Position numbers and translations under genes: made by a program
Notes under the pieces: model-generated
What the model was told of the DNA's origin: nothing
What the model saw: only the letters and a program-made list of their open reading frames with translations
Database searches by the model: none
Source: a virus
Lineage: Duplodnaviria > Caudoviricetes
Length of the DNA: 35,783 nucleotides
Strand: one strand, 5' to 3'
Virus record (IMG/VR): IMGVR_UViG_3300002986_000008
Location: 1 to 35,783 of that record
Shown: positions 13,900-22,659 of the stretch, piece after piece
Layout: each line of letters starts with the position of its first letter
Numbering within the stretch: position 1 is the first letter of the stretch

Positions 13900-14496
13900 T
13901 TGAATGCAAATAGAGGGGGTATTTATATCTCGCTTCAACGCAAAACCAAATATACAAAAAAGCAAAAGTCAGTATGCCACAAATTTCCAGATGCAGTACA
14001 GGCAACAAGGGAGCAGACAGAACAATTTTGGAATGAACTCAGTCTGCCTAAGATAAAGCCTGTGAACAGAAAACCGAAACCCAAGCATAAGGGATCGCAC
14101 AATGTGATCAAAGAAAGGCTCAAGGCAAACGCATATAAGCAAGCAGAGGAACGCGACGAAGGATACTGCCTTATATGTGGAGGTCTTGCTAATCAGCATC
14201 ACCATGTAATACGACAAAGCACCAGGTATGGACCAGAATACATTCAGCGCATGGAGAACGTTGTGTCAGTTTGCTCTATGTGCCACACAATGGGAGCAAG
14301 GCCTATCCATGATCCCAAGGGAAAGGGAGATAAGCAAACATACTTAGAGGAGTGGCAACAAAGATATTATCCAGAATATGTTGCGATGATGAGGGAGTTG
14401 GCTAAGGTGACAGGATGCAAGGATCAATGGTTAATCGACAGGTGGAATGATAAGTACAACAACTCAACAACAAAGCAACAGGAGGTAGCGAGATGA
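13900..14496 (+). CDS. HNH-family nuclease; start uncertain
   Basis: RDEGYCLICG..QHHHV...N..SVCSMCH. Confidence 0.75.
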   Translation: MNANRGGIYISLQRKTKYTKKQKSVCHKFPDAVQATREQTEQFWNELSLPKIKPVNRKPKPKHKGSHNVIKERLKANAYKQAEERDEGYCLICGGLANQHHHVIRQSTRYGPEYIQRMENVVSVCSMCHTMGARPIHDPKGKGDKQTYLEEWQQRYYPEYVAMMRELAKVTGCKDQWLIDRWNDKYNNSTTKQQEVAR

Positions 14497-17545: not shown

Positions 17546-17926
17546 ATGGCACTAACACCAAAGCAACAGGCATTTATAAATGAATATATGATTGACCTGA
17601 ACGCTACGGCTAGTGCTATTCGTGCAGGGTATTCAGCTAAGACAGCAAAGGTAATAGGATATGAAAACCTTACTAAACCTTCCATTGCTAAAATCATAGA
17701 AAAGGCACTGGAACAGAGGACGAAAGATAACGGTATCACGGCAGACTTTGTCCTTAACGGTATCAAGGGAATCGCATTAAAAGATGGCATAAAGGAATCG
17801 GACACGCTGAAAGCTTTTGAGTTACTCGGCAAGCATCTTAAACTCTTCACTGAGAAGATAGAAGAGAAGTCGGACCAAACGATCACAATCCGACTCGAAG
17901 GAGAAGCGGAAGAATGGTCAAAGTAG
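17546..17926 (+). CDS. terS: Terminase small subunit
   Basis: LTPKQQAFINEYMIDLNATASAIRAGYSAKTA...ENLTKP (Terminase_2). Confidence 0.93.
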   Translation: MALTPKQQAFINEYMIDLNATASAIRAGYSAKTAKVIGYENLTKPSIAKIIEKALEQRTKDNGITADFVLNGIKGIALKDGIKESDTLKAFELLGKHLKLFTEKIEEKSDQTITIRLEGEAEEWSK

Positions 17927-18169
17927 CCATTGGGTCCGATAATAGGTACTATGACAAGTTGCTATTTTACCAAACTCTTAAATTAAGCCATATTTAACCG
18001 TGGCAGCCGATTAACACGTTTCGATTCTCCTGTTTTAATTGAGAATGAGCGTGTTTTTATTAAAATATGCGATCTTTGATTATCTCTTGATTGCTTCGAT
18101 TAGCTATATCATACAAAAAGTGCTCGAAAACACGGGGTTATAACAAAAAGGAAGTGACTCATACATTAG

Positions 18170-18198
18170 TTGCCGAGGCGGAGGAAAGATGATATAAT
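18170..18198 (+). promoter_or_regulatory. sigma-A promoter of HNH gene
   Basis: TTGCCG-17 bp-TATAAT with extended -10 TG. Confidence 0.7.
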
Positions 18199-18216
18199 GT
18201 ACATGAGGTGAAGAAC

Positions 18217-18732
18217 ATGGAAGTTGTATCAAAGTCCTGTACCAAGTGTAACCAAGAGAAACCGCTAACTGAGTTCAATAACCAAAAGGCTGGTAAGTAT
18301 GGCAAACGCGCTACTTGTAGAGTATGCCAAAACGCAGAGAACAGAGCATACAAGCAGACTCCTAGGGGAATAGAGTTAAGACATGAGTGGAAATGCTCAG
18401 AGGTAGGGCGTGAAGGAAGCAGAAGATATAGGCGTAACAATAAAGATAAGACATACGCTTACGGACAAAGGGAATATGTGAAGGTTAAGAAACGCATTCA
18501 GGTAGACAACCTTAGATTTGGTGGCAATAGAATAAAAACACTCGAACGAGACAATTATAAATGCATTGAGTGTGGATCTGATTACCTAGTCCAAGTTCAC
18601 CATAAGGATGAGATGGGGCGAAACAAGCCAAAGGAATTGAGAAATAACGATATGTGTAATTTAACAACGCTATGCGCTAGGTGCCACATAACGCAACATA
18701 ATCCAGTATTGAAAAGATGGGCGAAGGTGTAG
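18217..18732 (+). CDS. Free-standing HNH endonuclease (homing-type, N-terminal zinc finger)
   Basis: KSCTKC..EKPLTEF...TCRVC; RDNYKCIECG...VHH...N...LCARCH. Confidence 0.85.
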   Translation: MEVVSKSCTKCNQEKPLTEFNNQKAGKYGKRATCRVCQNAENRAYKQTPRGIELRHEWKCSEVGREGSRRYRRNNKDKTYAYGQREYVKVKKRIQVDNLRFGGNRIKTLERDNYKCIECGSDYLVQVHHKDEMGRNKPKELRNNDMCNLTTLCARCHITQHNPVLKRWAKV

Positions 18733-18769
18733 AAATACATCTTCTTTCTTATTGTAGGAGGTGAGGCCA

Positions 18770-20143
18770 ATGTCCACCATTACGCTAGCAGGCAGACCGT
18801 ACCCAAAGCAAGTGGAGTTCTTTAAGAGTACTAAACGTTATATAGCGTATGGCGGATCTTAGGCTCGTGGCGGAGGCAAGAGTTGGGGGGCAAGGCGTAA
18901 AGCTGTGCTTCTGGCACTTAACTACTCAGGCATACAGATACTACTCGTTAGAAGGACGCTGGCGGAGCTTAGAGAAAACCATGTGCTAGTGCTTCAAATA
19001 GAATTAAGAGGCATTGCTAAGTTTGATGCACAAAACAAAGAGTTCATCTTCCCTAATGGGGCGCGGATCAAGCTCGGGTATATGTCGGCAGAGTCGGACG
19101 TATTACAGTATCAAGGCCAAGCATATGACGTGATATTCATGGAGGAGAGTACACAATTCACAGAATTCCAAAAGGACACATTAACCGAAAGTAATCGCTC
19201 ATCCGGGTTAATGAAAGAGAAGTTCACTCCTCGCATGTATTTCACATGCAATCCGGGAGGAATTGGACATAGCTGGATGAAGCGTTTATTTATAGATAAG
19301 GACTACAGAAATAAGGAAGATGCAACGAATTATGAGTTCATTCCTTCTACTGTGTATGAAAATAAATTCCTAATGACAAATAATCCCGAATATGTAGAGA
19401 ACTTAGAGAATCTTCCTGAGATGCGTAAACGAGCTATGCTATATGGCGATTGGGATGCGTTTGACGGTCAATACTTCGATGAGTTCAGCAGAGATATTCA
19501 TGTTATTGACTACCCTGAAGAAGGATTCCCCTTAGATTGGCGCCGATACATCGTCCTAGATTATGGGCTTGACATGCTGGCGTGTTATTGGATCGCAGTT
19601 AATTCGCAAGGAAAGGCGCACGTCTACAGAGAGTTGTACCAATCAGGACTGATAATCTCGGATGCAGCTAAGGCCATCATTAAGGCAAGTGGGACAGACA
19701 ATATATATCAAAGGATCGCACCACCTGACTTGTGGAATCGCAGACAGGAAACAGGCAAGAGTGCAGCAGACTTATTCAGGGATAACGGCTTAAGTTTAAT
19801 TAAGGCAAACAATGACAGGGTTATGGGCTGGTATGGCCTTAAGGAATGGTTAAAGCCTTATGATGATGAGCAAGGGATCAAAACAGCATCGTTAGTCATT
19901 ACCAAGAATTGCTTAAACATCATTAGAACCTTGCCACAACTCCAATATGATGATCATAACCCTAACGATGTGAGCAACGAACCGCACGAATTAAGCCACG
20001 GGCCAGACGCAATCCGTTACTTCATCGCAGGTAGGCCTAGGCCGAACACACCACAACAAAAGAAAAAGCGAGACGATTTCATGGACCGTGAGCCGAGGGA
20101 TACGTTTATCCTGGATAATAGTTTTATCAATATGGGCAGTTAG
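18770..20143 (+). CDS. terL: Terminase large subunit with in-frame TAG at codon 31 inside Walker A
   Basis: RBS AGGAGGTGA, ATG 18770, PYPKQVEF, YIAYGG-S-TAG-ARGGGKSW in frame with the ORF from 18905; Walker B (VIFMEE), TCNPGG, nuclease LDYG...HGPDAIRY. Confidence 0.9.
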
Positions 20144-20158
20144 TATATAATATAGATA

Positions 20159-20332
20159 GTGTAGTGGCGGAATAAGTAGACGCATGGTAGCTCAGTTGGT
20201 AGAGCGGAGGCAAATATCGGTGGTAATACACCGAGGGGAATAAAAATACCCCTTTGTAAAGCCTAGTGTCGAAGCTTCGATACCTTCCCATGGCTTAACA
20301 GGCTTTGTATGGTGTAAATCCATACCTACACA
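20159..20332 (+). ncRNA. Nested tRNA-like RNA without anticodon loop
   Basis: Outer acceptor GTGTAG/CTACAC, D-arm GCGGAATAAGTAGACGC, T-like arm GTATGG-TGTAAAT-CCATAC; inner TAGCTCAGTTGGTAGAGC D-arm and TTCGATA T-loop; TATAAT at 20146-20151. Confidence 0.7.
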
Positions 20333-20356
20333 TTATTAAAGAAGGTGAATAAATAA

Positions 20357-20551
20357 ATGGAGACTAAACTCTATACAGTTCGCTATGTGAACGCAGGAAC
20401 GGAAGAATACTTTTGTGAGTTTGTAGTTGCATCCGATGACCCTATTGGACTTCTAAGTAAGTTTGCAGAGGATAAAAATAATGAGGGCGTAGAAGTAGAG
20501 GAATTCGCGATAGATGGATACAGGATAACCGTGGAGAAGGTGAATAAATGA
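20357..20551 (+). CDS. Hypothetical protein
   Basis: RBS AAGGTGA; 64 aa. Confidence 0.6.
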   Translation: METKLYTVRYVNAGTEEYFCEFVVASDDPIGLLSKFAEDKNNEGVEVEEFAIDGYRITVEKVNK

Positions 20552-20808
20552 ATGATCTAATCGGACTGAGCATCGGCTTAGTTCTTTTTTTGTCGTGTAT
20601 CAAGGCATACACACTAGGGTACAGCCATGCAAAAGAGCTAGCGAAGGGTAACACACCAAAGCTATCACTTAACCCTATACGGCCTATTATAAAGGCTGTA
20701 GAGAAGCACAAGGAAGATAAGAAGATTGAAGAGTTGACTGATGAACTGTCCATAGCTATGGGATATAGCAGAGAGAGTGCGCTTGAGTTTGTGAAAAAAG
20801 AACGTTAG
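20548..20808 (+). CDS. Hypothetical membrane-anchored protein
   Basis: N-terminal hydrophobic helix; ATGA coupling. Confidence 0.6.
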   Translation: MNDLIGLSIGLVLFLSCIKAYTLGYSHAKELAKGNTPKLSLNPIRPIIKAVEKHKEDKKIEELTDELSIAMGYSRESALEFVKKER

Positions 20809-20820
20809 GGGGTGATCTAA

Positions 20821-22659
20821 TTGCAGAAGGATTACACGCAGGAATGGCGGGATTATCAGGATGGCCTTACCTATAACCAACGCCTTGATTATTACAGCAA
20901 AGTTGACCTAAACTGGCGCTTTTATAACGGAAAACAGTGGGTAGGCATCGTGACTAATGGACTCAGCAAGTGGGTTTTCAACTTCTGCCGTTCATCTATT
21001 AACTACTTCATTGCATTTATGGTGTCGCAAAAATTAAAGATGCAATTCAGCGCGGAGAACGTGCCCGACGAACCTGACGAACAAAGTGCAGACTTCCAAA
21101 AGGATACACAAGTCAAAGAATTGGTAACATTGCTCTCTGACATGGCCGACATGAAGTGGGAAAAAGACAAAATGGACTCACTATTGAAGGACCTCCTATT
21201 GGATGCTGCCAACAGTGGCGATATGTGCGCTCATGTTTATTGGGATAAGGCAATCGAGACAGGGCAATTGGAAAAGGGTGACTTCAAAACGGAAGCTGTC
21301 GATGGTGGCAACGTCATGTTCGGCAATCCTAACAATAAGATGGTCGAACGACAGCCTTATATCCTCATTATAGGCAGGGAAGCCGTGAAGGATCTCAAGG
21401 AGCAAGCCAAGGCAAACGGAGTATCTAAGGATGATTACGAGCAGATAGCATCGGACGAAGAGAACACCTATCAAGCAGGGGAATTAGGCAAGGTTGAACT
21501 TGAAAACAAAGGTGAGACTGGCAAAGCTTTAACGCTCATCAAGTACTGGAAGAAAGATGGTAAAGTCTTCTGGAACAAGTCAACTAAATACTGTGCAATT
21601 TGCAAAGACAAAGACTTGGGAATATCTCGCTACCCTATCGCCTGGGCTAATTGGGAATCAGTCAAGAATTCCTATCATGGCATGAGCGCAACAGAACAGA
21701 TCATTGATAATCAGATCAGTGTTAATCACATGTTCGCAATGGTTAGCTATTGGATGCGAATGTCAGCGTTTGGCAAGACAATCATTGACGAAACTGCCAT
21801 AACTTCATGGTCTAATCAATTAGGGACAGTGGTAAAAGCGACTCCTAATGGAGGTCCTATTAGTGGAATGGTTCATCAACTCCAAGCTGGAAACTTCAAC
21901 GAAGCCATCCTGAGAGTCATAGACATGGCCATTAAGTACACAAAGGACTTCATCGGTGCAAGTGATGCTTTAATGGGTCAAGTCGATCCCGAGCAAGCAT
22001 CAGGTGTCGCTATCATATCCACAGCAAAGCAAGCATCAATGCCTCTCATTAATATGACGATGAATCGCGACCAACTTGTCGAAGACTTAGGCCTTATTTG
22101 GGGTGAGTTCTTCCTCAAGAAATACGTCAATCGCAAAGTGAGCATTAGACAAAAGGAAAAGGTTGTTACGGCGCAATACAACACACAAGCGATAGAAGCC
22201 GTTAAAGATATACTCCTGCAATGTAAAGTCGATGTAGGGCCATCTCAGATATGGTCTGAGCTAATCGGCATACAGGCACTAGATAAGCTTCTAACCGAGG
22301 GTCATATCACAAAGCTACAGTATTTCGAGAGAGTCGCTAAGATGGGGTTAATACCCGACACAGCAGGACTTATCGAAGATGCTCAAGCAGAAATGCAAAT
22401 GTTACAACAGCAGGAACAACAACAAGCCATGGCTCAACAGCAACAAGGGCAGATGCAACAACAAGCCGATGGGGAACAGCAAGCGCAGCAACAGCAAATG
22501 CAAGAACAGAAGTTTGAGCAAATGGCACAATGGCTTGAACAGCAACCCACAGAAATGCAACAAAAGATCATGTCATTGCCGGAGGGCGAGAAGGAAGCTA
22601 CTATCATGAAGACGATGAAGAGTGATATTCAACAGACAATGAAGGGTGGTAGCCAATGA
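20821..22659 (+). CDS. Portal protein (podovirus/P22-like), Gln-rich C-terminus
   Basis: 612 aa after terL; FYNGKQW, ASGVAI motifs; Q-rich tail. Confidence 0.85.
   Translation: MQKDYTQEWRDYQDGLTYNQRLDYYSKVDLNWRFYNGKQWVGIVTNGLSKWVFNFCRSSINYFIAFMVSQKLKMQFSAENVPDEPDEQSADFQKDTQVKELVTLLSDMADMKWEKDKMDSLLKDLLLDAANSGDMCAHVYWDKAIETGQLEKGDFKTEAVDGGNVMFGNPNNKMVERQPYILIIGREAVKDLKEQAKANGVSKDDYEQIASDEENTYQAGELGKVELENKGETGKALTLIKYWKKDGKVFWNKSTKYCAICKDKDLGISRYPIAWANWESVKNSYHGMSATEQIIDNQISVNHMFAMVSYWMRMSAFGKTIIDETAITSWSNQLGTVVKATPNGGPISGMVHQLQAGNFNEAILRVIDMAIKYTKDFIGASDALMGQVDPEQASGVAIISTAKQASMPLINMTMNRDQLVEDLGLIWGEFFLKKYVNRKVSIRQKEKVVTAQYNTQAIEAVKDILLQCKVDVGPSQIWSELIGIQALDKLLTEGHITKLQYFERVAKMGLIPDTAGLIEDAQAEMQMLQQQEQQQAMAQQQQGQMQQQADGEQQAQQQQMQEQKFEQMAQWLEQQPTEMQQKIMSLPEGEKEATIMKTMKSDIQQTMKGGSQ

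Follow-up and report, generated by a model that had tools for sequence, protein, structure and literature searches.

Natural translational bypassing in bacteria and phages has so far been represented by gene 60 of phage T4 and by a candidate from phage Hau3. The T4 MobA/gene 60 element combines a free-standing endonuclease, a replacement 5′ part of the target gene, a topoisomerase gene, and a stop-led coding gap of about 50 nt (10.1101/2022.08.31.505936; PMC5009743). Its codons for take-off and for landing are paired with a wobble rule for Gly codons, and the endonuclease can be lost or swapped (HNH, GIY-YIG) with the gap staying in place. The cassette has been called unique in one of these papers (10.1101/2022.08.31.505936). 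In Streptomyces phage phiHau3, the terminase gene terL contains short non-coding blocks of 10 and 7 nt, and mass spectrometry of material made in E. coli is reported to demonstrate bypassing with the UUA codon replaced by a stop (PMC10732093). Synthetic constructs in E. coli support stop hopping at a low level, in which nine bases yield one residue (PMC5009743; 10.1101/2024.12.09.627546). A natural in-frame stop hop was then unknown, according to a 2016 review (PMC5009743).

Here we analyse a stretch of DNA of 35,783 nucleotides from a soil phage (Duplodnaviria, Caudoviricetes; IMG/VR record IMGVR_UViG_3300002986_000008), called the window below, whose terL carries a stop-led gap in the Walker A motif. 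The gap is real, recurrent and selected, and ribosomes most likely hop over it, which would make it a natural miniature of the T4 gene 60 bypass. As a family, the gap-bearing loci share with the T4 element the three components of the cassette, paired codons (in most gap types) with a Gly rule, and the loss or exchange of the endonuclease with retention of the gap. However, the target here is the Walker A motif of terL and not a topoisomerase gene, and the gaps are only 5-26 nt long (6 nt in the window, about a tenth of the T4 length). Short gaps have no take-off hairpin, and hairpins occur only in some gaps of at least 10 nt. In addition, 13 of 47 events, the window included, are unmatched, take-off occurs at several codons, terL is not split into two subunits, and the endonucleases beside the gaps belong to several unrelated families. 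By analogy, the window is a locus that would work like the T4 MobA/gene 60 element and not a member of it. The phiHau3 terminase resembles our loci in its short blocks and in having two gaps in one gene, as in two loci described below. Unlike our loci, it uses a hungry UUA codon instead of a natural stop, belongs to another terminase lineage and represents 3 of 100 genes, and the word HNH is absent from the main text of the paper (PMC10732093). The synthetic stop hop has the same geometry as the window, codon-stop-codon followed by resumption in frame, whereas the landing codon of the window is not synonymous with the take-off codon.

Results

The terL Walker A site

The terL gene of the window is arranged as follows.

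18770..20143, + strand, terL, with its ATG at 18770; the sole terL on the contig
18770..18859, + strand, terL ORF1, 30 codons, the last being the candidate take-off codon TCT (18857-18859)
18860..18865, + strand, 6-nt coding gap, consisting of the stop TAG and the candidate landing codon GCT
18866..20143, + strand, terL ORF2, RGGGKS onward with the ATPase and nuclease domains; its first start codon is GTG 18905

The earlier note had described an in-frame two-codon insertion in the Walker A motif, and our alignment agrees with it: the P-loop has exactly two surplus columns relative to 11 gap-free relatives. The site reads YGG-TCT-TAG-GCT-RGGGKS, the six extra nucleotides being TAG-GCT. Its codons are TAT GGC GGA TCT (18857-59), TAG (18860-62), GCT (18863-65) and CGT GGC GGA GGC AAG AGT, and the translated stretch is MSTITLAGRPYPKQVEFFKSTKRYIAYGGS, the stop, and ARGGGKS. 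Two ORFs of one conserved protein are separated by a non-coding gap, with a stop directly after the candidate take-off codon, as expected of bypassing. ORF2 matches the PHROG terminase large subunit (E=1e-45), and portal and capsid genes lie downstream of terL. In the predicted TerL model, the gap falls in the loop between the first strand (24-28) and the helix at 36-51. Foldseek with this model finds the D6E TerL (E=4e-18), and the fold also matches the Sf6 and T4 large terminases; a PDB sequence search with the TerL protein, also with a 12-row profile, gave no match. Beyond terL, a non-coding stretch (20146-20330) precedes the next gene, and loose contig ends at 20164-20207 bear tRNA-like letters; neither a tRNA nor an Rfam match was called in this stretch.

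A sequencing or assembly error is one rival account of the extra bases. Logan contigs of run X1 (depth 32, covering 18116-21500) and run X2 (depth 45, covering the whole stretch) show 0 differences from the window and no deletion at the site; both are assembled contigs, either of which may be the window's own source, and X3 leaves the site uncovered. The same design is found in the independent records L421, L001 and L456, and gaps of this kind occur in 42 protein clusters. The probability of an error is negligible.

No RNA structure above shuffles is predicted at the gap of the window (z=-0.56), and no take-off stem-loop is seen. A group I or II intron was rejected, with no Rfam match in the window and a gap of only 6 nt. 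The landing, as read from the sequence, is the weak point of an explanation by hopping: TCT and GCT differ at base 1 and pair only at bases 2-3. In addition, a Ser codon, TCG, lies out of frame at 18865-67, 2 nt past the landing codon, with a stop after 10 codons; a hop onto it would yield a dead product.

Stop-led gaps recur in terL

A protein search returned 41 viral loci, several of which have a stop at the same place and 5 or 17 extra bases. We then scanned IMG/VR with stop-blind patterns for extra bases between YGG and GGGK[ST], which gave 243 loci from 16 + 18 of 64 parts. These include 67 terL with extra Walker A bases, and an in-frame stop is present in every one (67/67). None of the 67 has a stop-free insertion or only 1-4 extra bases, and the shortest gap is 5 nt. 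By comparison, a control scan for the normal length found 119 terL in 120 loci, with an in-frame stop in 0/119. Scaled up, these scans give an estimate of ~250 gap-bearing versus ~24,000 normal stretches, roughly 1%. A metagenome pattern and one further search required a stop; their matches are outside the 67/67 count and inside the total of 98 loci, which also takes in those of the protein search. Left out were 167 non-terminase pattern matches, the 38 of 58 metagenome matches that are not terL, and L467, which equals the window in length and position and was taken as its own record; L044 and L046, each with a double gap, fall outside the counting pattern.

The earlier note had proposed a survey of terL homologues for stop-containing inserts and upstream HNH genes. 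The 98 loci found here form 42 clusters at 80% identity, with 47 gap types of 5-26 nt. The insert is not unique to this genome, and the gap is not due to chance, since the same kind recurs in 42 protein clusters. A GTDB scan yielded 41 loci, 39 of which have the motif, and all 39 are gap-free. Relatives with names belong to Bacillota. Among the tblastn matches listed for cultured phages (60 of 778 records, none of them close), no gap-bearer was identified, and in Arthrobacter phage Abba terL is a single annotated, unbroken CDS. A DNA query from a gut-phage family of gap-bearing loci matched 4 unannotated records. A literature search outside the subscription journals turned up no paper that describes such gaps at this site of terL. 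The two loci L044 and L046 have two stop-led gaps (6 and 5 nt) in one Walker A motif; the second landing is unmatched, and the downstream ORF of 418 aa is intact.

Gap geometry and codon matching

In a set of 40 events, gap lengths cover all frames (remainders 0, 1 and 2 on division by three in 11, 5 and 24 events), 29 events being out of frame, and the stop is TAG in 22, TGA in 14 and TAA in 4. These figures bear on amber readthrough, which the earlier note had offered, with pyrrolysine, as an alternative to hopping. TAG would then be decoded by pyrrolysine, a suppressor or a near-cognate tRNA, and the P-loop would gain two residues. The window's gap is a multiple of three and uses TAG, and the Bacillota origin of the named relatives would be compatible with this idea. 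However, most events are out of frame, 18 use TGA or TAA, stop-free insertions are absent, and the two closest relatives of the window have 5-nt gaps. Moreover, TAG is an ordinary terminator in the window, ending 11 of the 51 listed genes, in one case directly before the next ATG, and a tRNA scan of the window contig found none. Readthrough is therefore very improbable.

The landing codon equals the take-off codon at bases 1-2 in 34 of the 47 gap types, the others being unmatched. In the first set, 29/40 are matched at these bases (p about 1e-26 against 1/16), a null that overstates the case because duplication at insertion also yields a codon match. Base 3 is identical in only 14/40. Where the pair differs at base 3, Gly codons stay in one wobble class in 7/8 and Ala codons in 6/12, in small numbers and with transitions also being commoner. 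Manning and Atkins describe the same Gly rule for the T4 element, and also considerable latitude in P-site re-pairing. Among the five-base gaps, 14/15 use TAG, whose G is base 1 of the landing codon; the lower limit of 5 nt is explained by this double use of the G. Six of the 13 unmatched types have an Ala codon before the stop and GTN as the landing triplet, a combination that would allow a G-U pair. When the two codons differ in meaning, the conserved residue (Ala) is mostly the one encoded before the stop, and the landing triplet would specify Val, Thr or Glu instead, so that the first codon is the decoded one. The candidate take-off codon is any of at least four, with Gly, Ala, Ser, Leu and Cys represented.

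In the window, the GGA of a Gly codon forms a mini Shine-Dalgarno sequence 5-7 nt ahead of the landing codon; L421 and L001 have none. Over all, it occurs in 19/58 cases before landing versus 5/58 before take-off, an excess expected partly from the Gly codons. Shine-Dalgarno-like pairing before take-off is no stronger than in normal genes. One locus, L136, with eight extra bases and the reading YGGSAPK-stop, fits neither the take-off nor the landing rule. Gaps of 10-26 nt in L140, L139, L243, L432, L469 and L027 are predicted to fold into hairpins; in L140 the stop is in the 5′ arm and the loop has four bases, as in the T4 take-off stem-loop.

Alternatively, the gap might be removed from the RNA before translation, either as a micro-intron or by cutting and ligation with phage or host enzymes. 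This would account for the 13 unmatched events, and the long gaps of L139, L140, L243, L432 and L469 are predicted to fold such that their ends are brought together. On the other hand, most gaps are 5-8 nt long and unstructured, there are no common splice ends, and a rule of U before the gap and G as its last base fails for L018 and L105. In addition, the 5′ boundary is tied to the reading frame, as the pre-stop codon gives the conserved residue. We consider removal from the RNA improbable.

The clade of the window

In a quick IQ-TREE run, the window groups with L421 (86% identity) and L456/L001 (82%) with an SH-aLRT of 96. Of the 52 rows in the tree, 11 have the gap, and their distribution calls for 5 changes, of which at least 3 are forced; several origins or transfers are likely, not proven. 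All members of the clade read Ser-TAG-(G)CT-Arg; the gap of the window has 6 nt, that of the other members 5 nt. The clade has thus tolerated a difference of one base in the length of the gap, which shifts the frame, which fits skipped bases and not readthrough. Between the window and L421, pN is 0.087 and pS 0.81 before the gap, and pN 0.104 and pS 0.78 after it. No endonuclease gene is seen upstream of terL in L421 and L456.

These comparisons also bear on whether the window copy works. The gap class may be real and the window copy may still make no useful TerL, the phage being defective or borrowing the terminase of a helper. The unmatched landing and the competing out-of-frame Ser codon would be in line with a dead copy. 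The contig is incomplete, with no terminal repeat and its last ORF cut, so a second terL may lie elsewhere. Against this, three lineages whose synonymous sites are nearly saturated have all retained the Ser-TAG-(G)CT design in intact genes, and no other broken gene is apparent among the 51 listed in the window. A dead copy seems to us about as improbable as removal of the gap from the RNA.

Both halves of terL are under selection

The downstream ORF, of at least 380 aa, is intact in all 63 gap loci with enough DNA. In the gut-phage family, 23 non-independent pairs of 13 loci give a dN/dS of 0.048 for the 24 codons that lead up to the stop and of 0.066 for the part beyond the gap. The take-off codon GGT and the TAG are fixed in 22/22 distinct sequences of this family, and synonymous variation is seen in the Gly, Ala and Lys codons on either side. 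Both halves of the gap-bearing terL are under purifying selection; the genes are in use.

Translation could in principle stop at TAG and restart at GTG 18905, so that a split or P-loop-less terminase is used. An ORF of 412 aa with this start codon exists, and as the earlier note had pointed out, it lacks the P-loop motif; this form is the version of the window's TerL found in the protein collection. Split genes with free-standing endonucleases have also been described for T4 MobA and MobE. However, the GGGKS codons, which a restart at the next start codon would leave untranslated, are conserved and vary synonymously, and in only 5/98 loci could initiation at a start codon include the catalytic lysine. 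A restart is accordingly the least probable of the biological alternatives, and we give it hardly any weight.

The endonuclease gene and the putative replacement terL start

The region between terS and the gap contains the following features.

17546..17926, + strand, terS, small terminase subunit (Pfam Terminase_2, E=7e-30)
17914..17997, + strand, possible decayed original terL 5′ end; its ATG overlaps a terS Trp codon, 27-codon ORF
18170..18198, + strand, sigma-70-like promoter site before the HNH gene (10/12 consensus, with TG)
18208..18732, + strand, HNH gene for a free-standing, zinc-binding endonuclease; candidate homing endonuclease (Pfam, PHROG)
18723..18744, + strand, terminator-like hairpin and T tract between the HNH gene and the terL ribosome-binding site
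18756..18772, + strand, replacement terL start with a strong Shine-Dalgarno, GAGGTGAGGCCA-ATG type

The ORF immediately upstream of terL was called an HNH gene in the earlier note; it matches a PHROG endonuclease (E=8e-12) and also Pfam HNH, below the cut-off (E=0.0056). HNH genes adjoin terminase genes also in the case of terminase-associated HNH cofactors such as HK97 gp74. The window HNH differs from gp74 in its 174 aa with a Cys-rich N-terminal part, in its position between terS and terL, and in that its gain and loss go along with those of the gap-bearing terL start. It had further been credited with its own promoter. The site is present, but promoter-like sites in the region are not in excess of chance (4 versus 4.7 expected from shuffles). 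Terminator-like hairpins number 2 versus 1.3 expected, not significant alone; the one at 18723-18744 could shut HNH transcripts out of terL.

The sequence AGGAGGTGA at 18756-18764 precedes the ATG at 18770. This strong start motif is found in 6/6 gap-bearing versus 0/41 gap-free relatives (at least 58% identity), the motif having been defined post hoc from the gap-bearing sequences. In many gap-free relatives, terL starts inside the terS Trp codon. The ATG at 17914 has this same arrangement, and the ORF that it opens can be aligned with the terL starts of gap-free relatives; in 1 of 12 shuffle tests, the one against L006, p is 0.003. The alignment is suggestive of a decayed copy of the old terL start at 17914..17997.

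In a Pfam scan of the longest ORF just upstream, an HNH or GIY-YIG gene was found in 7/22 cluster representatives versus 0/45 controls (Fisher p=2e-4); 15/37 clusters with <800 nt upstream and 1/46 controls without an ORF were left out. Counting any cluster member, an upstream endonuclease is found in 11/22 clusters, and none is seen upstream in the other 11/22. One counter-example is L007, whose gap-free terL has a short HNH upstream. An endonuclease gene thus adjoins the altered target site, as in a homing cassette. The window HNH is 54-55% identical to the HNH beside the 5-nt-gap terL of L021-L023, and a similar HNH adjoins a 10-nt gap at the same codon in L432. A query of viral contigs with the HNH gave 8 weak partial matches, which are uninformative.

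L021 and L022 differ at only 5 positions in ~700 nt, from the end of terS/HNH to 11 nt past the gap. Outside this tract, the terS genes are 36-54% alike, with unrelated bodies, and the downstream sequence is mostly 72-94% alike, divergence setting in right after the gap. Such a homing-like tract is the footprint expected of homing; as a possible co-conversion tract it covers both the endonuclease and the target in these relatives, whose HNH is of the same family as that of the window. In L018, the HNH has been lost and the gap kept.

Discussion

The earlier note had proposed a ribosomal hop together with a mobile cassette. Recurrence of the gap, the matched codons, selection on both halves, the enrichment of endonucleases, the homing-like tract and the shared replacement start all speak for it, and we regard translational bypassing of a six-base insert from a homing cassette as the probable explanation. 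The cassette would consist of the endonuclease gene, a replacement terL start with ~30 codons, and the gap, and would target the conserved Walker A codons; the gap would most likely be the 3′ end of the arriving cassette. According to this model, the ribosome would stall with TAG in the A site, and the peptidyl-tRNA-Ser would release TCT and re-pair on GCT with two of the three bases, so that decoding resumes at CGT. Some fraction of ribosomes would thereby produce the normal YGGSRGGGKS loop and a normal TerL. By analogy with T4 MobA, the gap may block re-cutting of the converted DNA with the protein left unchanged; the nuclease would later often be lost and the gap would persist. The gap may also have a regulatory role, such as the control of packaging suggested in the earlier note.

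We lean slightly towards a broader reading, in which stop-led micro-gaps are a common and repeatedly invented entry of homing endonucleases to the terminase Walker A codons (about 1% of this terL type). This would be a third route beside introns and inteins, with neither a ribozyme nor a splicing domain, and it would depend on an intrinsic ability of the bacterial ribosome to cross 5-26 nt when it meets a stop, including hops to a codon that matches at only two positions, as in the window. With 47 natural gap designs (5-26 nt, matched and unmatched) in a packaging ATPase that the phage needs, one could test directly what hopping minimally requires. The same designs would illustrate how a selfish nuclease may change an invariant motif with the protein unchanged. 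In addition, gene callers make truncated terminases of gap-bearing terL, and phages that are in fact intact may be taken for defective ones.

Other traces of mobile elements were seen near these genes. In L071 and L121, the HNH ORF opens with an old terL-like N-terminus that runs up to YGGG, so that the Walker A codons are marked as the place of insertion. In L040, near 1440, an apparent intein C-terminus (HN) directly precedes the Ser of the terL Walker A motif, as judged by eye. Finally, a second HNH-like ORF of the window (13900-14496; PHROG E=8e-09) immediately precedes its dCTP deaminase gene.
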